Virus record (IMG/VR): IMGVR_UViG_2519899798_000002
Coordinates: 62,001 to 124,731 of that record
DNA from: an uncultured virus (IMG/VR IMGVR_UViG_2519899798_000002)
Taxonomy: Duplodnaviria > Heunggongvirae > Uroviricota > Caudoviricetes
DNA length: 62,731 nucleotides
Reading direction: 5' to 3' (one strand)
The notes under the pieces are model-generated. The model made no database searches. It was not told the origin of the DNA and saw only the letters and a list, made by a program, of their open reading frames with translations. Made by a program: the position numbers and the translations under genes. Of the stretch, positions 14,447 through 59,957 are shown one piece after another. Numbering within the stretch: position 1 is the first letter of the stretch; each line of letters starts with the position of its first letter.

Positions 14447-14871
14447 GTGAGAATTTAAATCTGCTGGAGGATAATGTAAAATCAAATCAAAGAGAAAAAT
14501 TCATTGCAAATGGTATACCCTATGATGAGCTTGATACACAAATGATCAATTTAATTGATATTTTGAATTTCAAGATTGGATTGAAAACACGCCACTGTTG
14601 TTTTGGACATAAACCATACGAGGAAATTCAAGTAATGTTTGAAGAAGAAGTGAATTTAAAAGAAGACCAAATTCTCGAATTGGCAGAATTAGCGGGGAGA
14701 GAATGGAAAGGTCTTCAGTTAAGCTTCAGCAAATGGGCACGGTTCTCCCCAATGATGTTCAATTGGTCATTAGTGTTATCGAAAAGATTTAGAAATCCAG
14801 AAGATCCAAATAAATATCGATACCTAAGATCAGTTGAAGAATTCTTTGAAAGCTATGTTGCAAAGAAGTGA
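14443..14871 (+). CDS. hypothetical protein
   Basis: 142 aa; TRHCCFGH motif. Confidence 0.75.
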
Positions 14872-14921
14872 TTAAAAGATGCATTTTAAAGTGAATTAGA
14901 TGAAGTAAAGGAGATGAACAG

Positions 14922-15656
14922 ATGGAAGCGTTACAACCAAATCAATATTTTGAAATGATTAAATCAAAGAAAAATAAGGTTACAGACAAAGAACTTCAAA
15001 GATATTACAACAATTGCTTGGTGTTACTCAATAAGTATAAGCAAACCAATCAAATTAAAGCTGCAAAGAAACTGATATTCCATTTAGAATCAATTGAAAA
15101 AGAACGGGAGATTGTAAAGCTTGGTATTGATACGTTTGTTTATCGAGATGACATTGAAGAATACATAGATAACATTGCAAAAGATACAGTCAAAATTATT
15201 GAGCTTGAAAATTACGAACGTGAAATCCCTGATGATGTAATCATTAAATTCAACAAAGTGAAAGATAAATTGGATCGGTTTTATGTGGTGTTTACAGATT
15301 ATACGGGGAAGGTTGAAAGGCAGATCGAAAAAGAACGGAGAGATAAGGATCCAATTTTATTCGGCACTTTTCAAGATGAGTCGAGCGGTACTTTGATTGA
15401 ACGTTTTTATTTCATAGGCGACTGGGAAGATGAGTATTGTGATCTCACTTTAGATAAGATGATTTCCGAAGTGCAGGAAGCAAAAGAATCAAATATTGCA
15501 ATGACCATCAATACACCCCAAGATATTGAGCAATTGAAGAAGCAGTTAAACAACATGGACAAGACGGGAAATGGGTTTAGGATGAATAATCCCGGATTTG
15601 CAATGGTTAATGAAAAAGAAAATTGGTTTAAAAAGCTGTTCAAAAGGCCGAAGTGA
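14922..15656 (+). CDS. hypothetical phage protein
   Basis: 244 aa; DPILFG...FYFIGDWEDEYCDL. Confidence 0.8.
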   Translation: MEALQPNQYFEMIKSKKNKVTDKELQRYYNNCLVLLNKYKQTNQIKAAKKLIFHLESIEKEREIVKLGIDTFVYRDDIEEYIDNIAKDTVKIIELENYEREIPDDVIIKFNKVKDKLDRFYVVFTDYTGKVERQIEKERRDKDPILFGTFQDESSGTLIERFYFIGDWEDEYCDLTLDKMISEVQEAKESNIAMTINTPQDIEQLKKQLNNMDKTGNGFRMNNPGFAMVNEKENWFKKLFKRPK

Positions 15657-16000
15657 TGAAAAGAACAGTTGACCTTACTGCAAATAGAGAGTTCATGAAG
15701 ATTGGAAATAGCCGAAGCGAGTCGTTAGTGCAAAGGTACTTAAAGAAGCGAATATACCCATGGAGTGTAGAAGCAGAAGTAAGACAGAACGACCTTTATA
15801 GTAACGGCCTATTGTTAACTGGCAACGGCTCTGAAAGAAAAAAACAGAAGGAATCAGCAGCATTTGAGAATACGTGTCACTGTTGTGGTAAGTGGGACTC
15901 CTTCCATATGACAATAACAAAATCAACCCTGTGTAAAAGTTGCGAAGAAATGCTTGATCACAGTGTTGTGAGCAACATCCCTTGGAGAAAGCAGTTTTGA
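15653..16000 (+). CDS. hypothetical zinc-finger protein
   Basis: CHCC...CKSC. Confidence 0.7.
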   Translation: MMKRTVDLTANREFMKIGNSRSESLVQRYLKKRIYPWSVEAEVRQNDLYSNGLLLTGNGSERKKQKESAAFENTCHCCGKWDSFHMTITKSTLCKSCEEMLDHSVVSNIPWRKQF

Positions 16001-16033
16001 TAAAAGTAAAATTTCAATGGAAAGAGGAGCTAT

Positions 16034-16336
16034 ATGAGAAGATATCAAACACATGAACAAGTTGCATTAAACTTCTTGCTTTCAGAGGCCAAAGAAGAGC
16101 TTAGATTATGTGAAGAAAGAATCGAGTTTCATGCAAAACATAGAGATTATGTTCTCATGAGGATGGAGAAAGAAATTGAAGCAAAGGCAAATGCGAAAAT
16201 TGAAAAATTATCTTCGTTGCTTGAGATGGAAAGAGAGTCTTGGGCAAACTTACCTTCTCTTTTACAAATTGGAATAGTGAACTCTAGGGGAGAATCTGTA
16301 ATTCAAGAAGAGCATTTTTCTGAGGAAATTGAATAG
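16034..16336 (+). CDS. hypothetical protein
   Basis: 100 aa, GAGGAG RBS. Confidence 0.7.
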   Translation: MRRYQTHEQVALNFLLSEAKEELRLCEERIEFHAKHRDYVLMRMEKEIEAKANAKIEKLSSLLEMERESWANLPSLLQIGIVNSRGESVIQEEHFSEEIE

Positions 16337-16607
16337 AATTGAAGTTTTAAAGAAAAGGAGCTGTTATAAAGTGAAAGATATCCGAGTTATATATGACAGA
16401 AACAAAACTTTAGAAGCGGTCGTTGTCCAGTTTGGAGACTATATGTGTGAGCTAGCAGAATCACAATTAATTGATGAAGAAACTAAAGAATTCGACGTGC
16501 TTAATGATGAATATCAAGGAACTTGGAAATATGAAAATGGAAAACACTGCGAAGTCGAAATTTATGATGGTGTAGACAAGTGGGTTTGTCAAGCATTCTT
16601 ACACTGA
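16329..16607 (+). CDS. hypothetical protein
   Basis: 92 aa, overlaps upstream stop. Confidence 0.7.
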   Translation: MNRIEVLKKRSCYKVKDIRVIYDRNKTLEAVVVQFGDYMCELAESQLIDEETKEFDVLNDEYQGTWKYENGKHCEVEIYDGVDKWVCQAFLH

Positions 16608-16643
16608 ATAAAAAGACTGTTTTAAAGAGAAAGGAGCTGAACT

Positions 16644-17315
16644 ATGGCAATTGATTTTGCAAAGTTAAATAATCCAGAATGGAAAAAGCAATGGCTTGAG
16701 GAGGAAAAAGAACGGGAGCGGCTTTTAGAAGAACAAGAAACACTGAGAAAGAAGACAGTTTGCTTTACCGGTCACAGACCAAATAAATTGGGTGGCTATG
16801 ATATGAAAAATCCCACAATGCTCAAACTCAAAGATAAGCTGCTTGAAGTGATTGAGGAGTTAATCATAAAAGAAGAGAAGTCCAGGTTTATAACTGGAGG
16901 AGCGTTAGGAACTGATCAGGCTGCTTGCTGGTGTGTACATATTCTAAAGAAGAAATTTCCCCATATCAAAAACATAATTGCAACACCTTTCAAGGAACAA
17001 GATAAAGTTTGGTCTGCAGACCAAAAAATGTGGTACAAACGTATGCTTGATGTGGCAGATGAGATTGTTAATGTTGAAGAATTAGATAAATATAAAGTTA
17101 GTGAAGATAAACCAGGAGAGTTTTCGCCGGCTAAGATGCAAAAGCGAAATGAGTACATGATTGATCACAGTGAAGCAATAGTAGCTGTTTATGATGGAAC
17201 TAAAAGTGGTACAAGGAACTGCTTAAATTATGCTAAAAGAACATTCCTAGGCCATCAATTATGGAGACTCCATCCTGATTTTAATTTTGAATTAGATATT
17301 ACTTACTTTACTTAA
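16644..17315 (+). CDS. SLOG/YspA (DUF1273) family protein, YoqJ-like
   Basis: CFTGHRP, ITGGALGTD, KRNEYMID, SGT motifs. Confidence 0.85.
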   Translation: MAIDFAKLNNPEWKKQWLEEEKERERLLEEQETLRKKTVCFTGHRPNKLGGYDMKNPTMLKLKDKLLEVIEELIIKEEKSRFITGGALGTDQAACWCVHILKKKFPHIKNIIATPFKEQDKVWSADQKMWYKRMLDVADEIVNVEELDKYKVSEDKPGEFSPAKMQKRNEYMIDHSEAIVAVYDGTKSGTRNCLNYAKRTFLGHQLWRLHPDFNFELDITYFT

Positions 17316-17336
17316 AACAAGAATAGGAGGATTAAA

Positions 17337-17744
17337 TTGAGAGAAATAAAGTTTCGGATGTATTCAAAAAAGAAAAAAATTATGCACTATTGGGATCATA
17401 TAAAACAGTTCCAGATGGCAGTGCTTGATGATAATAATGAAAATGAAAAATACAGTTCTTGGATGCAATACACCGGATTGAAGGATAAAAATGGTCGAGA
17501 GATTTATGAGGGGGATGGTTGTACGGCAAAACATAAGTCAGGAAAGATATATTCAGGTCAGGTTAAATATGACTTATCGTTTGTTTTTAATATTGAGGGT
17601 TTTGAAGAATTGTTCATTAACGGAGTAGGAGCCGTGAAAACTAACCGTACCTTTGATATATATTCGTTTATCAAATGGTTTGATGAAGTCGAAGTCATTG
17701 GTAACATTTACGAGAATCCTGAGCTGTTGGTGGCGGCAGAATGA
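17337..17744 (+). CDS. YopX-family protein (copy 1)
   Basis: REIKFR...MQYTGLKDKNGREIYEGD...EVIGNIYENPELL. Confidence 0.9.
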   Translation: MREIKFRMYSKKKKIMHYWDHIKQFQMAVLDDNNENEKYSSWMQYTGLKDKNGREIYEGDGCTAKHKSGKIYSGQVKYDLSFVFNIEGFEELFINGVGAVKTNRTFDIYSFIKWFDEVEVIGNIYENPELLVAAE

Positions 17745-18040
17745 AAGTGTTAGAGAATCAGACACTTTATCAGTGTGAACATTGTGGAAAGCGGCTGATG
17801 ACAAAGCACGGGGCTAGGCTTCACGAAAGAGTATATTGCTCAGTTGTCAAAGAGGAAGAACAGAAAAAACGTCAGGAATCCTGTGAACATAGGCACATGG
17901 AAATGAGTTATTGCACTATGCCGGGAGAAGATTATTTGCAAATACCTGACTATGAATGTTGTTCTGACTGTGGCATGACAGAAATGGAGATTGCAGAGCA
18001 AAAGAATAAGCTTCAGGAGGCGCAAAATGAAGGAAATTAA
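17741..18040 (+). CDS. hypothetical zinc-finger protein
   Basis: YQCEHCGK...H..C and CCSDC. Confidence 0.75.
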   Translation: MKVLENQTLYQCEHCGKRLMTKHGARLHERVYCSVVKEEEQKKRQESCEHRHMEMSYCTMPGEDYLQIPDYECCSDCGMTEMEIAEQKNKLQEAQNEGN

Positions 18041-18398
18041 ATTTCGCTCATGGATTAAAGACAAAAAAGAGATGCTTTATGAATTTACCTTAAAACAACC
18101 AACGGTTAGCTATTGTAAGTCAAACATTCTCATGCAATATACGGGGCTTAAGGATAAGAAAGGGAAGGAAATTTATGAAGAGGATATCATCCAAACATCT
18201 TATATGAAAATTAAAGGTTGCGCATACAGATGTGTTTTCTCAGCAGAGTTCGGTGGCTACTTATTTGATCCTTTTGTAATTGGAGATAAAGATGCTCCTC
18301 TAAAAGGTGTCGAGGAATTTTCCCAGCAGTGGGAAGATGTTAAACATGGTGAAGTTATCGGGAATATTTACGAAAATCCTAAGCTTTTGAGTAATTGA
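18027..18398 (+). CDS. YopX-family protein (copy 2)
   Basis: MKEIKFR...MQYTGLKDKKGKEIYEED...EVIGNIYENP. Confidence 0.9.
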   Translation: MKEIKFRSWIKDKKEMLYEFTLKQPTVSYCKSNILMQYTGLKDKKGKEIYEEDIIQTSYMKIKGCAYRCVFSAEFGGYLFDPFVIGDKDAPLKGVEEFSQQWEDVKHGEVIGNIYENPKLLSN

Positions 18399-18534
18399 AT
18401 AAAAGGATTATTTTATCTAGAGAGGACTGGACAAAATAATCAATAATAATACTCTATCGTAAGTTCATATTTTATATTACTTCGAAGAAAAACATTGAAT
18501 TTAAAAAGGGAGCTAGAAGCCCCCAATTGCGATC

Positions 18535-18816
18535 TTATATTCGTACACCTTCATAGTGCCCAATCCAATATCCATCTGAAACTTTAGTAATACCTTTTAA
18601 ATACCAGCGATATCCGCCGTCTTCAAATGAGTTGGCAAAAATACCTGTACTGCTAGGTAAATCCCAAGTGATAGCTTGAGCTTTAAAATCATCACTTGCA
18701 ACATTAGCTATTCCCTGATCCGGGCTTGGGCTTGTACTTGCAGCGAACGCTGGAGATGCTGAAACAAGTAAACCTACAGATAATGCGACACCTGTTAATA
18801 CTTTTTTGTAACTCAT
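18535..18816 (-). CDS. secreted protein, YoqM-like
   Basis: Sec signal KKVLTGVALSVGLLVSASPAFA. Confidence 0.75.
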   Translation of the reverse strand: MSYKKVLTGVALSVGLLVSASPAFAASTSPSPDQGIANVASDDFKAQAITWDLPSSTGIFANSFEDGGYRWYLKGITKVSDGYWIGHYEGVRI

Positions 18817-19007
18817 GTAAATCCCCCATTCTTATAATTTTTTCTTACAATTACATTATATGGATTTGTTGATTGGGGAAATAGCGAAATTACTCCCATA
18901 CATATGGAAATTGTGTGTCGGTTTTGTCATGATAGATGTGGAGAGATGGATTATAGGATGGAATCATAAAAAACTATAGAATAAAAATAAAATAAGTGGA
19001 GGTTATG

Positions 19008-19226
19008 TTGGTGATAAAGAGGAATCTGCTTAGCAACCACGTTGATGAGATTATCGGAGAATATTACGCTGCTAAAGGATATTCAGTCCATAGCATTGAC
19101 CGCCAGGAAAATGGACAACTAATCGTTGTTACGGAGCGAGTAGCAGAGGAGAAGGAAAATGCAAAAGTTGATATCGCATTTGATTTTGTACATAGAAGAC
19201 CACATAAGAAGAAGTATTTAGCATAA
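19008..19226 (+). CDS. yoqN: YoqN-like protein
   Basis: 72 aa, synteny. Confidence 0.55.
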   Translation: MVIKRNLLSNHVDEIIGEYYAAKGYSVHSIDRQENGQLIVVTERVAEEKENAKVDIAFDFVHRRPHKKKYLA

Positions 19227-19242
19227 AAAAGGCAAAGAGGAA

Positions 19243-19617
19243 TTAACACTCTTTACCGTTAGGTTTCTTTTTTAGACGATCACAGATAAATTTCATTATA
19301 CTGATAGCTATTGCAACAGATCCAATTATTAATGTGATTTGGAGGATGAATATTACTCCGAAATTTATATTCACATTGTCAAATAAGTCACTGGAAAAGG
19401 AAAGAAGCTTATGAATACCCAAGGCAAGTACGAAAAAGGTGAGGCATATTACGACAAGGGATGTTTTGGAATAATCTTTAGCGTGGTCAAAATTATAAAT
19501 TGCTATTGATACAAATAATAAACCCGTAGCGATCTTGTGGGATAGCGAATCATTCGCAGAAAATGATTGCACTACTATGCTTAAGAAAAATCCAGTAATA
19601 CCGATTGTTTTACTCAA
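19243..19617 (-). CDS. yoqO: YoqO-like membrane protein
   Basis: 124 aa from TTG, about 4 TM segments. Confidence 0.6.
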   Translation of the reverse strand: MSKTIGITGFFLSIVVQSFSANDSLSHKIATGLLFVSIAIYNFDHAKDYSKTSLVVICLTFFVLALGIHKLLSFSSDLFDNVNINFGVIFILQITLIIGSVAIAISIMKFICDRLKKKPNGKEC

Positions 19618-19730
19618 GGAATCACCTACTCTTATGTAAGTTAAGTATGAGTTTACCAATTAAAGGGGATTTTCTCAAGATGATACACATTAAAGTTAAA
19701 TTAAAATCGTGATTTAAAGGAGCGGAGATA

Positions 19731-20021
19731 ATGAACACTTATGTAGTCGATGACAGCAAGTATAAATGTATTTATGCGGGAACTGAGAAAGCAGCTGCTT
19801 TTAATAATGAATTTGAAAACGGAACAAGAGTAAGGGTTTGGTTTGAAGGCCATCACATAAAAACGTTTGAGAAAGAACAAAGAGAAGTCTGTGGAGTAGG
19901 AGAATGGATCCTTAAGTATGATGCTGCTACTGAATTGCAAAAGGAAGTAAATCGTTTGGAAAAGACATATTTCAAGAAGAAAGAATTGTTAGACACTATT
20001 AGACAAGCTGATGAAGTCTAA
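19731..20021 (+). CDS. hypothetical protein
   Basis: 96 aa, bounded by palindromes at 19702 and 20023. Confidence 0.75.
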
Positions 20022-20107
20022 ATAAAAGATAGTTTTTAACTAAACATATAAGGTTGGATCGTTATCGGTAAAAGCACACGCATCGATAACGATCGCAGAA
20101 GGGGTTG

Positions 20108-21357: not shown

Positions 21358-21409
21358 TCAAATTTGGATCAAAATAAAATATTTATTTTAATGGAAGGAG
21401 GGAACCAAA

Positions 21410-24442: not shown

Positions 24443-24501
24443 AAATAAAATTAAACATTCAATAAAAACGATATTTTAACCAGAATCCAGGAGGTAATGA
24501 A

Positions 24502-24897
24502 ATGAACTTATATGAAATTATGCTAGAACACTTTGCACCCAAGGGAAGTGAGCGGGGTATCTGTACATACGTGCTTGCTCAATCTGATGAAGAGGTATAT
24601 GAATGGTTGAAAACTGATCCAAGCCTATCTGACGGCAGGGTAGTCTATACCCCATATCAAGACAACGAAGAAGACGGTAAAACATATGCAATTTATAATC
24701 AGAGCTTTGATATTGTTGGTCATGAAAAATATAAAGATCGAATGATTCGATTAAAAGGTGAGTTGAATGATGAAGTTGAACTAACCGATCTTTATTACGG
24801 AATGACCTTAGTCGGGTGGCGTATGGTGAAATCGGATATTTCAACGGAACAAATTGAATTGTTAAAAGATACTGGCATCAGTATGGAGTTTGCATAA
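24502..24897 (+). CDS. yoqY: YoqY-like protein
   Basis: 131 aa, upstream of yoqZ. Confidence 0.6.
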   Translation: MNLYEIMLEHFAPKGSERGICTYVLAQSDEEVYEWLKTDPSLSDGRVVYTPYQDNEEDGKTYAIYNQSFDIVGHEKYKDRMIRLKGELNDEVELTDLYYGMTLVGWRMVKSDISTEQIELLKDTGISMEFA

Positions 24898-24994
24898 AAG
24901 TAATTTTTTATTCGGATAAGGGGGTGGTACTAATGTGATTGCTTAAAAGATGAGAAAAAGAATAAAAATAAAATTATATAAGGAGAGTTGTTAA

Positions 24995-29098: not shown

Positions 29099-29130
29099 AC
29101 AAAAATAAAAATAGAGGATGATAATTGCAT

Positions 29131-30471
29131 ATGGCATATAAGAAAAAAGATGATATTAAAATTAACAAAAAACACGGAGGGAAAGAATTCACAAACAATT
29201 TTAGGTTTGTTGGTTTAGTTAAACCCGTAAGAAAAAAAGATCCAGAAACAGACAGTTGGTATGATGCCGAAATTTTTGAAACAACTGTTACACAAACAAA
29301 GAAAAACAGAAGGGTGCTTCAGTTTAATATCGAAACAGCACCTTATAATGAATTAAAAGTGGAACTTTCTGGAATGGAACGTGATTTAGCTTATGCTTAT
29401 AGTTCCGTACATAAAAAAACAGTTCCACTTCCATGGGCTGACCGAAACGATAAGACCAAACTACCCGATGAAACGTATCATGTCATTGCACCAGAATGGG
29501 ACGTAACTGAACAATTAGCTAAAATCGTGAAGCCTGGTATGTGGGTAGAAGTTCAAGGCCAGTACGAATTTGATTCTTTTGAAAACAACAACGGAGAAGA
29601 AATCAAATTAGTGAAACGAATCATTAAAAGAGTTTATCCATTGAAAAATGGAGAAGTTGAAATTAAAGGCGTGAAAGATGGGGATCAATTTAAAGTGTAT
29701 GACTCAGAGGAAGAGGGAATCTGGCTCGGTAGTGGAAAAGCAAAAGAAGGGGTAGCAAAAGTTAAGGTGGGTTGGTTAAATCCGGATGGTGGAGACTTAT
29801 TCATCACCAAAATTACTGACGATGGTGAGGGGAAACGTTTTAAAGTAAGTTACACTGATGATGTTGTTGAAACGGATAAGATTAAGGTGTCGAATAACAT
29901 TCAAAGTGAAGTTAGAGTAGTAGAAGCAGATGGAAAATACAGTTATGTGCCTTATGTAAGAGACTTTGCTTCTAAAGATTTTAAAGAACATAACAAATTT
30001 GAAATGCAGCTAGGGATTAAGAGTACATACCAAGATGAAGAAACAAAGGATACAAAGGTAAATGGAGTTTATCTTGATCATGGAAAAGAAAAAAGTGTTC
30101 CAAAAGATGTTGAGCTTATTGTTTATTATAAAGAACCAGAAGAAGGCAAAAAACCTTTTGCAGATGCATTTGTTGGTTTAAAGAGAGGCGATTTTCTGGT
30201 TGTTGAAGGGATCGACAATAACAGAGCACAATTTACACAAGTCGAAGTTGCAGAATCAGAGGAAGAGAATCCTTTTGAAGATGTAGGGGAAAAAGTTGCT
30301 TCTTTTGAGACAGTCTCAACTGGAACTCGAAAGGGTCTAGAAGTATTGAGATACATTGGCGGTACTTGGAAGAGCGAATTCTTATCGGAGGAAGAGATTT
30401 CTAATGAGAAAAAACCTAATGAAGATCCTTTCGCTGAAGTAACTGTAGACGATGATGACCTGCCTTTCTAA
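29131..30471 (+). CDS. putative ssDNA-binding protein (YorF position)
   Basis: acidic DDDDLPF C-terminal tail typical of SSBs. Confidence 0.7.
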   Translation: MAYKKKDDIKINKKHGGKEFTNNFRFVGLVKPVRKKDPETDSWYDAEIFETTVTQTKKNRRVLQFNIETAPYNELKVELSGMERDLAYAYSSVHKKTVPLPWADRNDKTKLPDETYHVIAPEWDVTEQLAKIVKPGMWVEVQGQYEFDSFENNNGEEIKLVKRIIKRVYPLKNGEVEIKGVKDGDQFKVYDSEEEGIWLGSGKAKEGVAKVKVGWLNPDGGDLFITKITDDGEGKRFKVSYTDDVVETDKIKVSNNIQSEVRVVEADGKYSYVPYVRDFASKDFKEHNKFEMQLGIKSTYQDEETKDTKVNGVYLDHGKEKSVPKDVELIVYYKEPEEGKKPFADAFVGLKRGDFLVVEGIDNNRAQFTQVEVAESEEENPFEDVGEKVASFETVSTGTRKGLEVLRYIGGTWKSEFLSEEEISNEKKPNEDPFAEVTVDDDDLPF

Positions 30472-30523
30472 GATAAGTTGCGATTTGCGATTTAATAATA
30501 ATTAAATTATAAGGAGAGATTGA

Positions 30524-31684
30524 ATGAGTTTCCGTAAGAAAATTAAAAATAACACACCAAAGGTTGAACTACAATCGATCATGACACTAGTAGCAGGAGG
30601 ATATAAGACAGGTAAGACACGTCTGTGGAAAGAGGTAACTGAATTACACTATTCAAACCCCGAAGAAGCTTTATTGTTGTCTTTTGAGGACGGATACGAG
30701 ACATGGCAGCTAGACAACATCGTTCCTCTCCATGATGAAGGAACAGATAAAAACCTTTGGAAAGTTTGGGATTACTTTAAAAAAACAGTTGTCCCAGAAT
30801 TAGTTCAAGAGGCAAAGACAGGGAGAATCGTTAAACTTATTGGAGTAGATACAGCAGATAGAGCAATCGATGCTTGTACAGCTTGGATTCTGTACGATAG
30901 AAATAAACGCTATGGGAAAACTTTTGAGTCACTTCAAGATATTTCTGAGTCAACTAATGGTAAAGAAAACGGATGGACAGCGCTTTATGAAGAACTAAAA
31001 AAGCCTTTTGACACATTAAAAAATGCAGGCTATGGACTGATGTTTCTGGCCTGGACAAAAGAAAAAGAAACCACCCTGTATGATGGAATGAAATATAATT
31101 CAGTTCAATTAATGATGCCCAACTCTGGAAGAAAAGTATTTGAATCACAGGCAAGTCTAATCTGCTGCTTACATAATGAAGTTTCTGTATTAGATAAACA
31201 AGGCAATGAATTAGAAGATAACATTAAAGATAAAAAAGGACGTGATAAGGCAAGTAACTTCCATGACACAAAAGTTATGATGTATTTTAGACCATCTGAG
31301 TATGTTGAAATTGCAGGCGGACGTTATACTGAACTACCTGAAAAAGTTGAATATAGCGCAGAAAACTTTTTAAAGACATTCGAGAATGCGGTGCTTGGCC
31401 AAATTAAAAAGACTAATCGAACTGTTCATGAGATAAAAAAAGAGGAAGAACAACTCAGAGAGGAAAAAGTCCAAGAGGCAGCTGAAAAAGCTGCAAATGA
31501 TCCTCAGACGTATTTAGATGAGATCACGTTTTTAGTGTCTGACCAACCACCTGCAGTGAAACGCCAGCTAGCTGATGCCTATGCAACAAAGTTTGATGGG
31601 CAAAAGAATTATAAACAACTTAATTCGGTAGAAGATCTTAAAGAAGCTTTAATAATCACTAAATCTGTACTTAATGCAGTTTAA
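30524..31684 (+). CDS. P-loop ATPase (AAA_24/Sak4-like, YorG position)
   Basis: GGYKTGKT Walker A; IGVDT Walker B. Confidence 0.75.
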   Translation: MSFRKKIKNNTPKVELQSIMTLVAGGYKTGKTRLWKEVTELHYSNPEEALLLSFEDGYETWQLDNIVPLHDEGTDKNLWKVWDYFKKTVVPELVQEAKTGRIVKLIGVDTADRAIDACTAWILYDRNKRYGKTFESLQDISESTNGKENGWTALYEELKKPFDTLKNAGYGLMFLAWTKEKETTLYDGMKYNSVQLMMPNSGRKVFESQASLICCLHNEVSVLDKQGNELEDNIKDKKGRDKASNFHDTKVMMYFRPSEYVEIAGGRYTELPEKVEYSAENFLKTFENAVLGQIKKTNRTVHEIKKEEEQLREEKVQEAAEKAANDPQTYLDEITFLVSDQPPAVKRQLADAYATKFDGQKNYKQLNSVEDLKEALIITKSVLNAV

Positions 31685-31729
31685 TAAAGGGGAGTTTTTC
31701 TCCCCTTAGTTTCTAAAAGGAGAGCGGAT

Positions 31730-32341
31730 ATGAGGGAAGTTAAATGCCAGTGGTGCGGATCTAAAGGGGTAAAAAAAGAAATGCTCTGTGAAGCAAAACC
31801 AACTGGGAAATACAATAAAAACGGCACTGAAAAGTACATAAGGAAATATTTTCACGATAAGTGTTATGTTCAATATGAGAAGGATAAAGCGTTTAAAGAA
31901 AAAGAAGCAAATGAATTTGATGAACTCTACCTATACCTTAAAGATCTACATAGACTAGAGGGATTAAGTAAGAGAATGATTGAAAGGTTACAGGATCTAA
32001 GAAATGGAACGGTTAAATATCAAAGTCAAAAAGTTAAAAGATATAAAAAAGGAGTTCCGTTTAGAGACATTTTAGACACCTATAAGTATTCAGAACAGCA
32101 ATTACATAAAGCAAGGGATTACAAACAGTTCGAATCATCTTGGCACGAATTTGCGTATTTCTTGAGTATTATAGTTAGTAACATAAATGAAGTAAAAGAA
32201 AGGAACAGACGCTTAGCACAGCAAGACTCAATTCGTACAAGCGTTATAAAAAAACAAATTCAGCTTCAGGATGAAATTGATCTTGAGGTTAAGAGGAATA
32301 AAAACAAGAAGGATGAATTAGATATTTCAAGTTTATTATAG
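31730..32341 (+). CDS. YorH-like replication protein
   Basis: N-terminal CQWC...HDKC; upstream of helicase. Confidence 0.6.
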   Translation: MREVKCQWCGSKGVKKEMLCEAKPTGKYNKNGTEKYIRKYFHDKCYVQYEKDKAFKEKEANEFDELYLYLKDLHRLEGLSKRMIERLQDLRNGTVKYQSQKVKRYKKGVPFRDILDTYKYSEQQLHKARDYKQFESSWHEFAYFLSIIVSNINEVKERNRRLAQQDSIRTSVIKKQIQLQDEIDLEVKRNKNKKDELDISSLL

Positions 32342-32351
32342 GGAGTAAGCA

Positions 32352-33863: not shown

Positions 33864-33877
33864 GAAGGTGGCGATTA

Positions 33878-34942
33878 ATGTCCGATCTACAAACCATTAG
33901 GGAAAGAATTTATAAGGAAGAAAAAATACAAGATGTTTTAGAAGCTCTTGGATGTTGGGGCATCAGCACCGAACAAGGAGGTAAGTTGTTTGTTGCTGGA
34001 CTTCCTGACGGTGATAATGAACGAAGTGTTCAAGTCAAAAACACACCCTCTTTAACTTCAAATATCAGAAGCAAGGGAATATCAGGATCAATATTTGATG
34101 TCATATCCTACATACTTTATGAAGCTAAATCTGAAGATGATAAAAAAGCATGCCTTTCAAAGAGCAAATTTTGGTTATGCAATAAACTAAATTATTTAGA
34201 GTACATAGATGGATTTTATAAATTAACAAAAGAAAAAGAAAAACCACAACCGAATAGATGGCTGCACAAGCTTCAGAAAAATCGTAATAAGGAAGATGGA
34301 ATAACCGATGAGAACGAAATATTGCCCGAAAGTGTTTTGGATCAGTACGGAAATATTCCGTATTTAGGATGGTATAATGAAGGATTGTCACTTAGGACAC
34401 AAAAGCTTTTTGGTGTAGGAATTGATGTAAGATCTGAACGCGTAACTTTTCCGGTACATAATAAGAGTGGTCAATTAATTGGTGTTAAAGGGCGATATAT
34501 TGGAAATGACCCAGTGGTTAATGATAAATATAAGTATCTCTATATACAGCCCTGTAATAAGTCAATTGAATTTTATAATTTACATAGAGCTCTCCCTCAC
34601 ATTAAGAGACTGAAAGAAGCAATAGTGGTCGAAGGTGGCAAAACCACCTGGTATTTAACTCAATGGGGGTTTAAAAACTGTATTTCAATTGAAGGAGACA
34701 GTATGTCTGATGAGCAAATAAGGATACTTAAAAATTTAGGGATTGGGATTAAATTTGTATTTGCATATGACAAAGACAAAGATGCCAAATTCATTGTTAA
34801 TGAGGTATCCAGGCTTACAGGCAGATTACGTTACGGAATTTATGACAAGGACAACCTTTTATCTGATAAAGATTCGCCTACAGATAAAGGATACGATGTT
34901 TGGACTTCCTTATACGAAAACAAATTTAAAATAAATAGATAG
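33878..34942 (+). CDS. DNA primase, TOPRIM domain (YorJ position)
   Basis: RVTFPV, GVKGR, VVEG, YDKD. Confidence 0.85.
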   Translation: MSDLQTIRERIYKEEKIQDVLEALGCWGISTEQGGKLFVAGLPDGDNERSVQVKNTPSLTSNIRSKGISGSIFDVISYILYEAKSEDDKKACLSKSKFWLCNKLNYLEYIDGFYKLTKEKEKPQPNRWLHKLQKNRNKEDGITDENEILPESVLDQYGNIPYLGWYNEGLSLRTQKLFGVGIDVRSERVTFPVHNKSGQLIGVKGRYIGNDPVVNDKYKYLYIQPCNKSIEFYNLHRALPHIKRLKEAIVVEGGKTTWYLTQWGFKNCISIEGDSMSDEQIRILKNLGIGIKFVFAYDKDKDAKFIVNEVSRLTGRLRYGIYDKDNLLSDKDSPTDKGYDVWTSLYENKFKINR

Positions 34943-38970: not shown

Positions 38971-39693
38971 ATGAAAATTTTCAAAAAACTTATATACAAA
39001 CACAAAAAATATGTATATCATAGAATTAATGAGATGACACTTTTTGCTACAATTGGGTTGTTAGGAGTAGGACTCGTATATAGCGCTAAAAACTTGTATA
39101 CACATCAAGACAATCAAGTCTCAATAAAAGAGTCATTTTATCTAAATAAAAAAGAGGTGAGGCAAAAACTTATTCATGAAATTGACGTTCCAAGAATCCT
39201 TCCCAAGCTAAAGAGTGAGGAAGAAAAACAGGCTGAAAGTAGAAAAAAGTATCTTAATGCGAAGATTACATATCTAACAGAAGAAAATAAAAAAGCAGCA
39301 AAACATACAAAGACAAAAAAAGTGCAAAAAACCAATACAAAGAGAAATGTTGATAAAGCAGTTTCAAAAAGTACAATTGCAAAGGCAGTGAAGAGTCATG
39401 AAGTTGTTGCCACTGCTTACACAGCGTTTTGTTCTACAGGGTGCACAGGGAAAACAAGAACCGGCTATGATGTATCAAACACATCCTATTACAATGGAAA
39501 AAGAATAATTGCTGTTGATCCAGAAGTAATTCCTTTGTATTCATTAGTTAAAGTTTCATATGAAGGGAATAGCTTTCAAGCATATGCAATAGATACAGGA
39601 GGAGATATTAAAAACAATCGTATTGATATTCTGATGGACAGTGAGCAAGAAGCATGTGCATTTGGTCGTAAAAATGTAAGAGTGAGCTGGTAA
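38971..39693 (+). CDS. yorM: YorM-like 3D-domain cell-wall protein (start possibly 39034)
   Basis: ATAY, IAVDP..IP, AIDTGG.IK.NRIDI; N-terminal TM. Confidence 0.85.
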   Translation: MKIFKKLIYKHKKYVYHRINEMTLFATIGLLGVGLVYSAKNLYTHQDNQVSIKESFYLNKKEVRQKLIHEIDVPRILPKLKSEEEKQAESRKKYLNAKITYLTEENKKAAKHTKTKKVQKTNTKRNVDKAVSKSTIAKAVKSHEVVATAYTAFCSTGCTGKTRTGYDVSNTSYYNGKRIIAVDPEVIPLYSLVKVSYEGNSFQAYAIDTGGDIKNNRIDILMDSEQEACAFGRKNVRVSW

Positions 39694-41471: not shown

Positions 41472-41605
41472 AAGAATTACCTCCCAGGTTTTGATTGTGA
41501 TACAACTCTAGTCTAGCATGTTAAATATTTGAAATGTGTGAAGTGTTTGTGAAACTGATTAAAATTTGTCTTGTATACAAACTTAAAATTAGAGGAGTAG
41601 ATAGA

Positions 41606-43903: not shown

Positions 43904-44116
43904 ATGAATCATATATGTGACATCTGTAAAGAGTACATTAACGGAAAAACAATTTGTCTTAGAATCAGCGATGATAAAACTTATGTAGACTTCAATTGTT
44001 GTGAAGGTTGTGCAAAGGGTTATTCCGAGAAAGTGAAGAAGGAATGCAGCAACTTAAGCGTTAAAAAGACATTAGAGTATTTAAGGCTAAACAACAAATA
44101 CAAAATAAGTGGATAA
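43904..44116 (+). CDS. yorZ: YorZ-like zinc-binding protein
   Basis: CDIC...CCEGC, 70 aa. Confidence 0.7.
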   Translation: MNHICDICKEYINGKTICLRISDDKTYVDFNCCEGCAKGYSEKVKKECSNLSVKKTLEYLRLNNKYKISG

Positions 44117-44226
44117 AATATTCCTTTTATCGAGAATTGTTTCTAAAAGTGAAAACGCCATAAAAACTTCTTATGGCGTCTGTCGAACAGGGAGGTGAGC
44201 CAAAAGGCTTTGGATTTACTCTGAGA

Positions 44227-45823: not shown

Positions 45824-45983
45824 CATTCTTGAAATCACGGGTCTTTTGTTGATTGGAGTAGTTTCACTAGATACATATGGAACTAAAAGGAGAATAAAAC
45901 CTCAAATAGCTCTAGGATTATTAGTTCTAGCTGGTTTGTTATTCATGGCAGGTTTGGTTTTACAGATTATCAACAATGTCTAA
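45780..45983 (+). CDS. small membrane protein (start probably GTG ~45798)
   Basis: two hydrophobic segments. Confidence 0.6.
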   Translation: MQNWMGVKILQLVINILEITGLLLIGVVSLDTYGTKRRIKPQIALGLLVLAGLLFMAGLVLQIINNV

Positions 45984-46020
45984 ATAAAATTCAATTTTTA
46001 TCGTGAAAGGAGCAACTGAA

Positions 46021-46898: not shown

Positions 46899-46943
46899 AG
46901 ATCTAAATAAAAGTTTTATTTTAAACAAAAGAGGAGGAAATAA

Positions 46944-47312
46944 ATGAATGACAATCTGAATAAATACTTGAATAATTTGGAGCATTTTATTGAGTTAATA
47001 GAAGAAATCATTAATTTCCTTCATGAAAGGAATTATAAACTTAATAAAAATGAAAAAGAGCATGCGAGAGAGTTAATGAAATGTTTTAAAGATCAATTAA
47101 ATTCTGAAGTTACCTCTATTAAGAAGATAAGAAAAATAGTTGGTTATGATGATATTTGTTTCAATAATTATTATGCAGGAATTAGCGATGCCTCAATAAG
47201 GATTTATAAAAAGTGGAATTCTATACCCAATGAAAAGTGGGTACATGAATTGGCGGATGCTAGACATTCAATTAGGCATTATCTGACTATCCTGAAGAGA
47301 AAATTAAAATAA
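46944..47312 (+). CDS. hypothetical protein
   Basis: 122 aa, GAGGAGG RBS. Confidence 0.7.
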   Translation: MNDNLNKYLNNLEHFIELIEEIINFLHERNYKLNKNEKEHARELMKCFKDQLNSEVTSIKKIRKIVGYDDICFNNYYAGISDASIRIYKKWNSIPNEKWVHELADARHSIRHYLTILKRKLK

Positions 47313-47321: not shown

Positions 47322-47576
47322 ATGATGACAATGAATGCGAAATTCGGATTATATGTTAAGGGAGCGCACGTTAAAACTTATGATGATGCTATCCAAGCTC
47401 ACAAAGATGCTATTTTTGCTCAAGAAGAAATTGGAGTTCCGCATGAGGTGATTCAAATGAATTTGCATATGGATGAGGCAATTGAATTCCTCAATAAATA
47501 TGATAACAGTTCAAAAAGCGCACAAGATGCTCAGGTATTGTTAAGAAATTTAAGGGAACTATTCCAACAAAACTAG
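47322..47576 (+). CDS. hypothetical protein
   Basis: 84 aa. Confidence 0.65.
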   Translation: MMTMNAKFGLYVKGAHVKTYDDAIQAHKDAIFAQEEIGVPHEVIQMNLHMDEAIEFLNKYDNSSKSAQDAQVLLRNLRELFQQN

Positions 47577-47627
47577 ATAAAATCACAGCTTTATTCAAAA
47601 TAAAATTAAAAAATAAGGAGATGTAAA

Positions 47628-47981: not shown

Positions 47982-48376
47982 TGATCATTACATATGAGAG
48001 TAAAACAGGCAATGTAAAAAGGTTTGTAAAAGCGCTGCAACACAAATCAGATATTAAGGCAATTGAAATAACAGATGATACCATCATCAATCAAGAGTTC
48101 ATACATATTACATACACGATTGGCTTTGGGGAAGTGCCTGAAAGGACATTGAATTTTATTAATAAGAATAAAAATAAAATAAGAGGAGTTGCTGTTAGTG
48201 GAAACAAGGTTTGGGGTGATAACTATGGTTTAGCTGGAGACAAGCTCTCAGCTAAGTTCCACACACCATTGTTATTAAAGTTTGAACTTAGTGGAACGAA
48301 ACAAGACTTACAGAAGCTCATTCAGGAGGTACAACTTATTGACAAACACAATACCAAAGTGGATCAAGCTCAATAA
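47981..48376 (+). CDS. nrdI: class Ib RNR flavodoxin NrdI (YosM)
   Basis: YESKTGNVKRF, TYTIGFG, SGNKVWG, KFELSGT. Confidence 0.95.
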   Translation: MIITYESKTGNVKRFVKALQHKSDIKAIEITDDTIINQEFIHITYTIGFGEVPERTLNFINKNKNKIRGVAVSGNKVWGDNYGLAGDKLSAKFHTPLLLKFELSGTKQDLQKLIQEVQLIDKHNTKVDQAQ

Positions 48377-51043: not shown

Positions 51044-52048
51044 TTGTCACAACTCAACGAAAACAAGCTGTATACTGCAGCAAACTGGTCAAAGCATGAA
51101 GACGATTTTACCCAAATGTTCTATAACCAAAACGTGAAGCAGTTCTGGCTTCCGGAAGAGATTGCTTTAAACGGCGATCTCCTCACATGGAAGTACCTCG
51201 GAAAAAACGAGCAGGACACTTATATGAAAGTCTTAGCTGGGTTGACGTTGTTGGATACAGAACAAGGCAACACAGGCATGCCTATAATTGCGGAACATGT
51301 AGATGGGCATCAAAGAAAGGCAGTTTTAAATTTCATGGCTATGATGGAAAATGCTGTTCATGCAAAGTCTTACAGCAACATTTTTCTTACATTAGCTCCA
51401 ACTGAGCAGATAAATGAAGTCTTTGAATGGGTGAAAAACAATAGGTTTCTTCAAAAGAAGGCTAGAACAATTGTTTCAGTCTATAAATCAATCAAGAAAA
51501 ACGATGAAATTTCTTTATTCAAAGCAATGGTTTCATCTGTTTTTCTGGAGAGTTTCCTTTTCTACTCAGGGTTTTATTATCCACTTTACTTTTACGGACA
51601 AGGAAAACTTATGCAGAGCGGGGAAATTGTAAATTTAATTATCCGTGACGAAGCGATACACGGCGTTTACATCGGTTTATTAGCACAGGAGATATATAAG
51701 AAACAAACTCCTCTGAAGCAAAAAGAACTGCATGCATGGGCTTTAAGTTTACTGCAGGAGCTTTATGAAAATGAACTGGAGTATACAGAAGATGTTTATG
51801 ATCAGGTTGGATTAGCTCCAGATGTAAAGAAATTCATCAGATACAACGCAAATAAAGCTTTAAACAATCTGGGCTTTGATCATTGGTTTGAAGAAGAGGA
51901 TGTTAATCCAATTGTTATCAATGGTTTGAGCACTAAGACTAAATCCCATGACTTCTTTTCAACTAAAGGAAACGGGTACAAAAAAGCCACGGTTGAACCA
52001 TTAAAGGATTCTGATTTTATTTTTACCGAGAAAGGGTGTATTCAGTGA
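51044..52048 (+). CDS. nrdF: class Ib ribonucleotide reductase beta subunit, no intron
   Basis: [30 protein letters not shown]. Confidence 0.96.
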
Positions 52049-52287
52049 GATTGATTAAATTAGAGCAGCCTAATTGCAATCCATGTAAAATGGTTTCCAA
52101 TTACTTAGAACAAGCAGATATTCATTTTGAGACAGTGGACGTTACACAGGAACCAGAAGTAGCAGCAAGATTTGGTGTCATGGGAGTACCGGCAACCATT
52201 TTGCTGAATGATCAAGGAGAAGAAGTAAAACGAAGTGTTGGTTTTAAGCCTAATGAACTTGATGAGTTACTAAAGGAATTACGATAA
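52045..52287 (+). CDS. yosR: thioredoxin/NrdH-like protein YosR
   Basis: CNPC motif. Confidence 0.9.
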
Positions 52288-53474: not shown

Positions 53475-53586
53475 AAATACACCACAATTTCCTTTTTAAC
53501 TCATTTTAACATAAATAGGGAAAAGGAGAGATCTGATTTCAATAAAAGAATACTTTTATCTAAAATCAATAAGGAGGAAAGAGATC

Positions 53587-54579: not shown

Positions 54580-54587
54580 AATTGTGT

Positions 54588-56301: not shown

Positions 56302-56596
56302 AAATAAAGCCTCCTATATATAGTGTAAGGTAAGGATAGAATAAAATTACAGAAAAGTCAAAATAATTTATATTTTAAACGGGTTATTAAAACATCTTTA
56401 TGAACAGAGGGATTTGTCAGGGCTAAGTAAATGGATTTAAGAATGAAAATAAAATAACTATAGACAAATACAAATAATATGTATAATATAATAATAGAAG
56501 ATGATGAAATGACAGTTTTTTTATCTAATATACAAAAACAAAAAATATACATTTTTTAAAACTAATATTTTATTCAAACTTTAAGGAGGTGATTCA

Positions 56597-57154: not shown

Positions 57155-57358
57155 ATGAGCGAGGAAGTTAAGGAACTACGTTGTACTGTTGCTGATTTAA
57201 TTGGCGAGAATGAGCAGCTGAAAGAAGATTGGAAGAAGTTAGCTGGGTTGTTTGTGCAATCACTTGCTTTAAACATAACGCTAATGGATGAAACTTTGCC
57301 AGAGTGGCGTTACTTTGCAAACGAGGAAATCGAAAAATTAAAGGAGTTATGTAAATGA
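57155..57358 (+). CDS. hypothetical protein
   Basis: 67 aa. Confidence 0.65.
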   Translation: MSEEVKELRCTVADLIGENEQLKEDWKKLAGLFVQSLALNITLMDETLPEWRYFANEEIEKLKELCK

Positions 57359-57663: not shown

Positions 57664-57811
57664 GATGTGTATTATGCCTTGTACTGTAATAGGAGGTGAA
57701 ATATATATGTACATGCGAAGAGGGTAGTGGCAAATGTCCTTATAGTGATGGAGCGCTGGATATATTCTAAATGAAATCTGTATTTTATAAAAAAACTGGT
57801 CATTAGACCAG

Positions 57812-58486: not shown

Positions 58487-58579
58487 AATAAAACCTCCAA
58501 CCTTTTTTACTCAATTATACCAGTAAATGAGGTTGAATGAAATATATACAATTTATGAGGGAAATAATCCCCTCATAAA

Positions 58580-58798
58580 TTAATGAAATTGACCGCCCAT
58601 GTTTTGTTGAGCTAAGCGAACTAAACGTTTAGTGATTTCTCCACCAACTGAACCGTTTGCACGAGATGTAGTCTCAGCACCTAATTGAACACCAAACTCA
58701 GAAGCTATTTCAAGTTTCATTTGTTCAATAGCTGAAGCTGCTTGAGGAATTAGTAAATCATTATTGTTGTTTGATCTTGATCTACTTTGTTGAGCCAT
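58580..58798 (-). CDS. sspC: alpha/beta-type small acid-soluble spore protein SspC
   Basis: [37 protein letters not shown]...[14 protein letters not shown]. Confidence 0.97.
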
Positions 58799-58844
58799 CT
58801 TATTCATCTCCTAAAGTGTAATGAAAACAAGCTTGTTTGAATCA

Positions 58845-58873
58845 TATTATGGAGAGATTATTTTAATTTATAC
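58845..58873 (-). promoter_or_regulatory. sigG-type promoter of sspC
   Basis: GTATA-N17-CATAATA on minus strand. Confidence 0.65.
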
Positions 58874-58916
58874 ACGCCAGAGAAATAAATTTTTCATTAA
58901 GAAAGGTGGGGACAAA

Positions 58917-59743
58917 ATGAAAATTGATTATGTATCAGATCTCCATATAAATCATTGGATACCTTGGAATGTAAATCAGATTAAGTGGGAGAAGCGAACA
59001 AGAGAAATTGTAAATAGGTTAATCTCAAACGGTAATGGGGAGGTATTGGTCATTGCCGGCGATTTTACTGAATGGAATCAACAAACTTTATGGGTTTAGA
59101 TGAGGCAGCAAAGCAATACGAGAAGGTTTACTTTACATATGGTAATCATGATCTTTATTTACTTAGCAAGAGCCAAAAAAGGAAATACTCAGACTCGTTA
59201 GGCAGGTTGAATGATCTAATTCAAAAAGCTGCTGATATGAAAAATGTAACACCATTAATTAAGACAACTGAAACATACAAAGGAAAAGTCTTTGCAGGAG
59301 ATGTAATGTGGTACCTTCCAAAAGGAATCGAAGGATGGGACTTCTTTAAAGGAGTATCTAACGATTCTAATTACATTTGGCTTAATGGTTATAACAAAGT
59401 AGATGGTGTAAGAGCGATGTGGAAAGAATCAATGGATTGGTATGAAACGCTTGAAAATACACAAGTTGATGTATTTGTCTCACATGTTCCACCTGTTCAC
59501 AATCCTTATTCTCCATTTGAACCTAATACATGCTACATGGTTGATGTCCCGTTCATTAACGCAAAACACTGGGTTTGTGGACATGATCATTTACAAGCTG
59601 AGTTTGACAAAGATGGAACGAGCTTTCACATGAATTGTATCGGATACCCGTATGACTATGATAATTATCCGAGTGTCAATGTGATACCTGGTGAAGAAGT
59701 AGATTCATATAAAACGTTTGAGCTTAAAACATTCGAGATTTAG
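58917..59743 (+). pseudogene. yotB: metallophosphoesterase YotB with -1 frameshift
   Basis: SDLH, AGD in one frame, GNHD, SH, GHDH in the next; adding one T at ~59095-59097 gives 275 aa. Confidence 0.8.
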
Positions 59744-59793
59744 ATTTAATTAAAATTCTAATTTTATGCAGAATTAAAACAGGAGTGGACTAA

Positions 59794-59925
59794 ATGGACA
59801 ATAGAGAACAAATTGACTGGACTTGTAAAGAATGCAGTTTTAGTTGGATAGGGGATTACACAGATTTTTCATGTCCTGCATGTGATGAGATTGATATAAG
59901 ACCCAAAAATAAGTTATTGAATTGA
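59794..59925 (+). CDS. 43-aa zinc-ribbon protein (not in ORF track)
   Basis: MDNREQIDWTCKEC...CPACDEIDIRPKNKLLN*; bounded by palindromes at 59751 and 59927. Confidence 0.7.
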   Translation: MDNREQIDWTCKECSFSWIGDYTDFSCPACDEIDIRPKNKLLN

Positions 59926-59957
59926 ATAAAATGTTGATTTCATTTAGAAAGGAGATA

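Follow-up and report, generated by a model that had tools for sequence, protein, structure and literature searches.

The DNA analysed here (62,731 bp, referred to as the window) comprises bases 62,001-124,731 of a 124,731-bp record classed as provirus and represents the early region of an SPbeta-like phage, with the aimR-yopR control region, the replication module and the accessory yoq, yor, yos and yot regions. Dispersed over it are copies of a palindrome, TAAAA-N6-TTTTA, that forms the core of a 28-bp dyad. Judged from comparison of related phages, each 6-bp spacer of this dyad is a fixed address, and unrelated cargo is swapped exactly at the sites. We consider it probable that the dyads act as spacer-matched crossover points for a phage tyrosine recombinase working between genome copies, two crossovers amounting to the exchange of a cassette.

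The exact pattern, which was chosen from the window itself, occurs there in 23 copies compared with a mean of 1.17 and a maximum of 4 in 100 dinucleotide shuffles, and the enrichment is specific to six, as other spacer lengths (2-5 and 7-12) yield 0-4 copies each. The whole genome contains 32 copies (vs. 0-4). Among the 28 matches to the 13-25 kb part of the window, 24 are SPbeta-like phage records, and the early regions of 16 of these together with that of this phage made up a comparison set of 17 phages, from which a duplicate SPbeta record, SPbetaL7, two phi3T variants and four hybrids were excluded. The 16 other phages are equally spacer-specific (22-36 copies at the 6-base spacer vs. 0-3). 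Across 310 distinct flanked cores, information reaches from -6 to +21 relative to the first T of the core, resulting in an 11-6-11 architecture and a weight-matrix consensus, built with this phage's own sites included, of T[CT]TRAATAAAA N6 TTTTA[AT]NNA[GA]A. The spacing of sites is no more regular than random. In addition to junctions of accessory genes, sites occur once as an exact core inside yopR (11378) and six times in the late region beyond the window.

Two other readings of the palindrome were rejected. An RNA hairpin or terminator does not fit the weak median RNA energy of -1.15 kcal/mol among 294 sites, the arms of which are no more complementary than shuffled ones and show no covariation. 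Identity with SPBRE, the operator of MrpR/SroF bound by a recombinase-fold protein (available text of PMC10516654 and bioRxiv 10.1101/2025.11.27.690993), does not hold either: the promoter role belongs to a separate, asymmetric repeat family (D1/D10) that is present at 5542, 7247, 12759, 28658, 38987, 43838 and 56455, so that the promoters of aimR, yopM, yopV, yorE, yorM, yorZ and yosX carry this repeat and not the palindrome. These genes match published MrpR targets by synteny, in agreement with an earlier suggestion, made in a first-pass annotation of the window, that SPBRE-like promoters lie upstream of the palindrome-bounded genes. SPBRE resembles the palindrome in being a dispersed repeat of the same phage to which a recombinase-fold protein binds, but differs from it in its asymmetry and its location at promoters, and phi3T has a different box yet identical palindromes. 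A second, A-rich repeat (AAAATAAAAT[TA]AGTGGA-like; 13028-13048, 18978-18998, 44093-44113, 48165-48185 and 61468-61486) often adjoins palindromes or ribosome-binding sites in the window and was not found in distant phages.

The first-pass annotation had described the palindromes as phased to stop codons and as enclosing short gene units. The motif scan and the coordinates of the open reading frames (ORFs) bear out the enrichment and every position named: the TAA of the core is the stop codon of ORFs 24502-24897 (yoqY), 43904-44116 (yorZ) and 52036-52287 (yosR), names that we assigned by position against the SPbeta and Goe13 annotations, and the core begins 1-2 nt past a stop at 14873, 16001, 16609, 18400, 20023, 45985, 47578 and 59927. 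Among the latter, the cores at 16001, 47578 and 59927 contain one mismatch, as does the left site at 19702. The phasing itself is real but partly built in, because positions -4, -3 and 0 belong to the left arm, whose consensus holds stop triplets; stops at these positions are found in 70 of 187 distinct left flanks (47 at the core TAA), and 52 of the 187 have no called stop nearby. On the right, 109 of 194 distinct flanks place a start codon 30-49 nt past the first T of the site, which leaves most cassettes no room for a promoter, while 59 have no called start within 90 nt. Still, the description of the units as promoterless is not universally valid, because gad1 and gad2 are described with their own promoter in the available text of bioRxiv 10.1101/2023.05.01.538930. 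The one- and two-gene units proposed earlier were recovered as well, except that 16034-16607 consists of two single-gene units split by a site at 16334.

The constancy of the spacers became evident from 550 site instances in the 17 phages. Flank alleles seen at least twice keep one spacer in 98 of 102 cases on the left and in 96 of 101 on the right, and one spacer typically has many unrelated neighbours, e.g., GATGCA (Table 1). Spacer order is collinear, with 0 conflicts in 1068 pairs; shared spacers occur in one orientation and order in all 17 phages, and no inverted modules were found in pairwise searches of the plus strand. Slots, denoted here by their left and right spacers, offer room for alternative cargo, seven kinds for TTCTAA>TGTTGA, six for GTTTTA>GGATGA and eight for TGCATA>CAACAA. 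A single order accommodates 284 of 290 gene families, whereas six sit in incompatible slots. One of these exceptions is partly due to a missed degenerate site, and one gene has truly moved over more than 60 kb, being found after TGCATA and in TTCTAA>TGTTGA; in this move it kept its 3' arm and took local spacers. Within genomes, spacers are unique: none of seven genomes contains the same spacer twice, in direct or reversed form, compared with 7.0 repeats expected (P about 0.001, or 0.004 without G010, which is related to G012). Neighbouring spacers are no more alike than random (53 pairs, P 0.31-0.43), which provides no support for new addresses arising by partial-match insertion. As judged by eye, the distant genomes G010 and G012 have some 20 addresses in common order, except that TAGACC and CGTGCC are swapped (G010 51763/53247, G012 52605/52917).

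Further evidence comes from the ends of homology between phages. Strict breakpoints between phage pairs, taken as located at a site when falling within -10 to +25 (1.6% of the DNA), coincide with sites in 424 of 1237 cases; gene ends and the remaining intergenic DNA (30%) account for 625, and gene interiors (68%) for 188. Among distinct ends, the share located at sites is 225 of 718. A breakpoint is present at 214 of 325 gene junctions with a site vs. 229 of 1166 without one. Homology at the site breakpoints starts at -2 to 0 and ends at +13 to +17 or at +21/22. Sixteen independent four-way flank cycles, at 12 addresses, were detected, and alignments gave uninterrupted identity between cycle partners of 20 bp at GATGCA, 17 bp at TCGTAC, 21 bp at AGACTG and 14 bp at TCTGTA, while at several other addresses the right leaders share more than in these cleanest cycles. 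The outer left arm travels with the upstream cargo, and left outer arms are about equally alike within and between addresses. A contig from run X8 is identical to the window at 12500-13064 and 16605-20043, and 781 letters of different sequence separate the two matching stretches, the joints corresponding to the last base of one core and to position -4 of another; contigs of runs X1, X5 and X6, from which rare forms are dropped, contain no joint at a site. Breakpoints and swapped cargo together support the earlier notion that the sites bound gene cassettes as recombination-type joints.

Sharing of sites extends to phages that are otherwise almost unrelated. FADO (W23) contains 33 sites and a YomM homolog with 32% identity, and matches SPbeta-like DNA at 80% identity or more over only 2372 of 164,756 bp in four blocks, five of the eight ends of which are located at like-address sites. 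One of the blocks, a 361-bp cassette that runs from TTCTAA to TGTTGA and is 100% identical to its counterpart in Goe12 and Goe13, cannot have been made by homologous recombination in the flanks because unrelated DNA is present on both sides. Eleven of the 33 FADO addresses are in the SPbeta-like pool (2.7 expected), whereas sharing is no greater than by chance for Kirov (4/25), the Staphylococcus phage SPbeta-like (3/17), G006 (3/24), G010 (0/49) and G012 (4/70). The motif is nevertheless the top or a near-top de novo palindrome in all six of these genomes, enrichment is weak at most in Lactococcus phage AM4 and Enterococcus phage nattely, and SPO1 has neither the motif nor a YomM match. Around yomM in 20 GTDB loci, there are 63 matches at the 6-base spacer vs. 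7-18 at other lengths. The chances appear even to us that SPbeta-like and related large Firmicutes siphophages possess a self-encoded crossing-over system consisting of a recombinase (or of YomM and YopP) and dozens of orthogonal sites; the 6-bp addresses would then be shared even between lineages with almost no other DNA similarity. FADO also has a second strong palindrome, CGTTG-N1-CAACG, in 13 copies.

Two tyrosine recombinases of the phage are candidates for the enzyme. YomM (333 aa; G000 31233-32234, minus strand) is encoded outside the window, in the late region and some 27 kb away from the arrays. Its predicted fold is XerA/Cre-like, with XerA and Cre as best matches, IntI lower and the Int of Tn1549 also among the matches, and it has no arm-binding domain. 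All 39 of its homologs have K211, H281, K284, H309 and Y319, and no fewer than 90% have R181. A site is found within -10 to +40 of the yomM stop in 34 of 42 IMG/VR loci, many of them near-identical (two of 44 were skipped), and in 11 of 20 GTDB loci (two partial ones of 22 were omitted). It often has a TCCCTC-like spacer, even where the protein is only 65% identical, and in G012 it has the TGAAA/TTTCA form that dominates in that genome. The second candidate, YopP (Table 1), which we take to be the auxiliary repressor SroD, keeps its residues in all eight genomes aligned, with R replacing K278 in three. The crossovers are probably made by a recombinase of the phage itself, most likely YomM, acting alone or paired with YopP in the fashion of XerC/D, and the host Xer proteins CodV and RipX are further candidates. 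Among close SPbeta-like phages (Goe11-14, L5, L7 and L8 compared), two YomM alleles, 98 and 65% identical to that of this phage, occur with the same sites, and in L082, L084, L091, L098 and L123, 215-712 bp of extra DNA lie between yomM and the TCCCTC-type site.

In the mechanism that we propose, the dyad would correspond to a core-type tyrosine-recombinase site with two 11-bp binding arms and a 6-bp overlap, the arms being common to all sites and the variable overlap, at which strand exchange is expected, serving as address. A site would normally recombine only with its twin in another genome copy, be it a sister chromosome, a resident prophage or a co-infecting phage. A first crossover would join two phage genomes at a shared address, and a second one at another shared address would resolve them and thereby swap the intervening DNA, a two-step route like those of pdif cointegrates and of engineered cassette exchange. 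The uniqueness of the spacers would guard the genome against self-deletion and inversion.

The same enzyme and sites could also have genome maintenance as their main job, circularising headful DNA or resolving multimers in the manner of P1 Cre/loxP, with cassette exchange as a by-product. SPbeta-like phages are described as pac/headful packaging with circular permutation (available text of bioRxiv 10.1101/2021.11.22.469490), and many addressed sites would provide permuted ends with a matching pair. The sites in the late region and inside core genes, and the location of the YomM homolog just upstream of a tape-measure or tail gene in FADO, Kirov, AM4 and the Staphylococcus phage, are also consistent with such a role. 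In eight site-rich genomes, however, the largest gap between sites amounts to 11-18% of the genome, no smaller than random (P 0.28-0.97), against a terminal redundancy guessed at about 2 kb, and sites crowd in accessory regions, with up to 70 per genome, and bracket single genes. We regard maintenance as main function as quite improbable.

Several observations weigh against crossover at the spacer by a phage recombinase. A majority of strict breakpoints, 813 of 1237 (493 of 718 distinct ends), lie off sites and are not degenerate sites either, so that most of the mosaicism arises by other routes. At a given address, right flanks have additional identity as far as about +27, which indicates that many 5' junctions arose near the ribosome-binding site and not at the spacer. 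None of the nine major switches in four phi3T(s)-SPbeta laboratory hybrids pins a crossover to a site: eight are in identical tracts of 1.4-18 kb that contain sites and one is within 39 bp of identity without a site (two hybrids also contain short parental patches at a single place, which were not counted because they probably reflect differences in the reference), and homologous recombination is invoked by the authors of the hybrids (available text of bioRxiv 10.1101/2020.05.06.055103). With regard to the enzyme, HxxK replaces the usual HxxR in 39 of 39 close YomM homologs and likewise in SPbeta YopP, while the YomM homologs of FADO, Kirov, AM4 and nattely have HxxR; no site adjoins yomM in FADO, Kirov, the Staphylococcus phage, AM4, nattely and nine of 20 GTDB loci; and AM4 has both recombinases but a weak motif (10 vs. 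2-5). Because YopP is equally intact and equally common to five site-rich distant genomes, the choice lies between YomM, YopP, both or host Xer. Finally, the 17 phages and many IMG/VR loci are related to each other, and the counts given do not represent independent events.

Alternatively, the dyads could be operators, be it for SroE, a recombinase-fold repressor or an architectural protein, which, as the sole sequence conserved between otherwise unrelated genes, would passively provide microhomologies of 16-28 bp for the annealing protein YorG or for host recombination. MrpR provides a precedent for a recombinase fold serving this phage as repressor (as far as the available literature describes it), a Sak4-like gene (YorG) is located at 30524-31684 of the window and has weak homologs in FADO and Kirov, microhomology too would let only like spacers recombine, and the hybrid switch within 39 bp needed no site. 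On the other hand, the crossovers of 14-21 bp are short for annealing or RecA pathways, the minimal length for RecA in B. subtilis being about 70 bp, and an operator role leaves the avoidance of duplicate spacers and the site on the yomM stop unexplained. In some site-rich genomes the proteins concerned also went undetected, with no YorG match in G006 or the Staphylococcus phage and no SroE match in FADO or Kirov, and the motif persists where SroF is only 23-29% identical and SroE 27-29% identical or undetected. SroF boxes, as given in the available text, are a different motif that varies between phages. All in all, operators that act as passive microhomologies are an unlikely explanation.

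The first-pass annotation had compared the units to integron cassettes, which would excise as circles, reinsert at any site and be read from upstream SPBRE promoters. The site-RBS-ORF-site anatomy (RBS, ribosome-binding site) with the stop inside the arm is indeed reminiscent of such an array, and a few data point to free insertion: junctions with heterologous spacers (4 of 102 left and 5 of 101 right alleles), the six families in incompatible slots, including the gene found in places more than 60 kb apart, and the gad2 deletion described below. In contrast, addresses and gene families keep the fixed order reported above, the sites have no attC-like hairpin, the relocated gene adopted local spacers instead of carrying its own, and no attI/Pc platform was seen beside a recombinase. 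Unit genes keep their addresses in other phages, with yotD one slot off, and homologs are thus largely found in fixed synteny, an outcome that the first-pass annotation had itself named as refuting its reading. An integron-like array is very improbable, and as the main mode it is largely refuted by these sequence data.

One slot is occupied by known anti-defence genes. In SPbetaL7 (L321 109,505-110,778), the anti-Gabija gene gad2 fits exactly between a CAGAGA and an ACGATA site, and the TAA of a core serves as its stop codon. In phi3T, gad1 starts 51 bp past the same CAGAGA address, and the phage studied here is without that slot. A spontaneous gad2 deletion that escaped Cas13a was reported to span 109,505-110,753, and the genes to lie in a "dedicated locus" (available text of bioRxiv 10.1101/2023.05.01.538930). 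The left end of the deletion is the first base of the left site, and its right end lies 3 bp outside the right site, giving a length of 1249 bp compared with 1252 bp for a clean site-to-site event; as a single and inexact event it is suggestive of a site-to-site origin. If spacer-matched exchange takes place, the dedicated locus would be explained as one addressed slot.

Among known systems, the pdif/dif modules (XerC/XerD) of Acinetobacter Rep_3 plasmids are most similar in working: they share the 11-6-11 architecture, many sites per replicon bounding accessory genes, the need for identical or near-identical spacers and the replacement of single modules via a cointegrate (available text of PMC13141974). 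The restriction to like spacers agrees with the flank alleles and with the FADO blocks described above. The sites studied here differ by their location on a phage chromosome with phage-encoded candidate enzymes, by unique spacers in fixed order, by a near-symmetric TAAAA/TTTTA dyad in place of XerC/XerD boxes (compared by eye with the table available in PMC13141974) and by the lack of alternating C and D modules, none being inverted. They are therefore not members of the pdif group, because the arms are not XerC/XerD boxes and modules neither alternate nor invert. Heterospecific lox and FRT sites and P1 Cre-loxP likewise combine common arms with a spacer that sets the partner, and YomM has a Cre/XerA-like fold; heterospecific exchange is engineered, however, and P1 has one natural site, compared with 17-70 orthogonal sites per genome with a 6-bp spacer here. 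Coupling sequences of Tn916 and Tn1549 are similar in their AT-rich inverted arms and roughly 6-bp variable core, but tolerate mismatched cores and lead one element to many targets, whereas like spacers dominate here. Boundary or linker sequences of mosaic phages, such as T4 PeSL, are also short conserved sequences at module borders; they are promoter or homology elements, in contrast to the strict dyad, individually conserved spacers and 14-21 bp crossovers found here. Integron cassettes share the compact one- or two-ORF units, mostly without promoter room, and the stop inside the site (phage-borne attC sites are the subject of the available text of PMC9892861), but the present sites have no attC hairpins or R/L boxes, no attI was seen, and their order is unshuffled, with exchange in register between genomes.

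The exchange of unrelated phage genes at sharply defined borders has long been a question, to which illegitimate or relaxed homologous recombination is the usual answer. If our proposal is correct, standardised slots would swap anti-defence and other accessory genes in register, which would make them nature's equivalent of engineered cassette exchange and a programmed origin of mosaic phage genomes; yomM would gain a function, and genome engineering would obtain a recombinase together with dozens of sites that are naturally orthogonal. The joints are explicit and open to testing in a model phage of B. subtilis 168: there are two candidate genes, the substrate is 28 bp long and the spacers follow a rule. 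Literature searches, with subscription papers (original SPbeta genome, SroE) and bioRxiv supplements outside their reach, found no description of the site and, in full text, no paper on "yomM" with "SPbeta"; word searches gave no mention of the site in the available text of PMC10516654, bioRxiv 2021.11.22.469490, bioRxiv 2025.11.27.690993 and PMC9892861.

Table 1. Recombination-type sites, cassettes and the recombinase gene of the window (counts refer to the set of 17 phages).
Feature	Position	Strand	Slot, occurrence and remarks
28-bp site, spacer TCGTAC	231..258		13/17 phages; 4 left and 5 right alleles; two pairs in all four combinations
Single-gene cassette, 91 aa	271..546	+	TCGTAC>TCATTC; no Pfam/PHROG family
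28-bp site, spacer TCATTC	552..579		
Exact 16-bp core, spacer ATTTAG	2610..2625		Poor outer arms; spacer in 5/17 phages; missed by weight matrix
28-bp site, spacer TAGGAA	5521..5548		Adjoins SPBRE-like repeat upstream of aimR
yopP, tyrosine recombinase (PF00589)	8031..9128	+	Second candidate enzyme; R185-K213-H275-K278-H302-Y311
Exact 16-bp core, spacer TTAACT	11378..11393		Inside yopR/mrpR; in 12/17 phages
28-bp site, spacer TGTAAG	13043..13070		17/17 phages; run X8 contig joint at 13064
28-bp site, spacer GATGCA	14867..14894		17/17 phages; 7 left and 8 right alleles; 15 combinations
Two-gene unit, 244 + 115 aa	14922..16000	+	GATGCA>GTAAAA
28-bp site, spacer GTAAAA	15995..16022		Right core TTTCA
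Single-gene cassette, 100 aa	16034..16336	+	GTAAAA>TTGAAG; among the 17 phages only here
28-bp site, spacer TTGAAG	16328..16355		Left core TAGAA; score 17.2; missed in the first-pass annotation
Single-gene cassette, 78 aa	16371..16607	+	Ends in AGACTG site; start 16371 most likely
28-bp site, spacer AGACTG	16603..16630		16/17 phages; run X8 contig joint at 16605
28-bp site, spacer GGATTA	18394..18421		Downstream of YopX-family gene
Degenerate site, spacer TCGTGA	19696..19723		Core at 19702 with one mismatch
Single-gene unit, yoqP-like, 96 aa	19731..20021	+	TCGTGA>GATAGT in 7 phages; compatible wider slots in 7 more
28-bp site, spacer GATAGT	20017..20044		Address also in FADO
28-bp site, spacer TATTTA	21369..21396		
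28-bp site, spacer ACGATA	24457..24484		Right border of gad2 in SPbetaL7
yoqY cassette	24502..24897	+	Slot holds unrelated 413-bp cassette in L6, L4 and BUCT082
28-bp site, spacer GTAATT	24889..24916		TAA is yoqY stop
28-bp site, spacer TGATAA	28579..28606		Precedes replication module
28-bp site, spacer GAGTCA	39119..39146		
28-bp site, spacer TTTGTC	41554..41581		Right core TTGTA
28-bp site, spacer TATTCC	44108..44135		TAA is yorZ stop
28-bp site, spacer TTCAAT	45979..46006		
28-bp site, spacer GTTTTA	46902..46929		17/17 phages; 8 right alleles
Two-gene unit, 122 + 84 aa	46944..47576	+	GTTTTA>TCACAG
28-bp site, spacer TCACAG	47572..47599		Right core CTTTA
28-bp site, spacer GGGTAA	52279..52306		TAA is stop of thioredoxin gene yosR
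28-bp site, spacer GAATAC	53537..53564		
28-bp site, spacer CTAATA	56551..56578		
28-bp site, spacer TCTGTA	57766..57793		Left core TGAAA
28-bp site, spacer TTCTAA	59745..59772		Address common to FADO
Single-gene cassette, yotD-like, 43 aa	59794..59925	+	TTCTAA>TGTTGA; 7 alternative cargos in 16 phages
28-bp site, spacer TGTTGA	59921..59948		Right core TTTCA
28-bp site, spacer TCGGTC	61438..61465		17/17 phages

With the exception of thioredoxin and YopX, the unit genes tested returned no Pfam family at cut-off. The same TCGTAC>TCATTC slot, 321 bp long, is present in 7 of the 17 phages, and the IMG/VR relatives of its gene have TCATTC on the right in 7 of 7 cases and a scored TCGTAC site on the left in 2 of 7. 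Four IMG/VR relatives of the 16034..16336 gene reside within the same GTAAAA to AGACTG neighbourhood. The 122-aa gene (46944-47312) has no relative in the other 16 phages or in IMG/VR and shows a faint Apea-like HEPN match only (E 0.007, below cut-off). Among the genes at 13089-13676, 17337-17744 and 17991-18398, two YopX-family members (Pfam) share one slot, and in other phages genes with a similar C-terminal end are found ahead of several different addresses. The replication module (36660-38951 and 29125-34942), which sits between the TGATAA and GAGTCA sites, is unlike that of SPbeta in that a 763-aa polymerase matching PHROG 17 replaces the 1305-aa YorL, and the helicase/primase region also differs. 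A metallophosphoesterase (PHROG 1649) is split over ORFs 58821-59099 and 59072-59743. In phi3T (L003 25780-28174), two adjacent DNA methylase ORFs occupy the slot GATCAA>TTTGTC and the preceding slot, where SPbeta has one.

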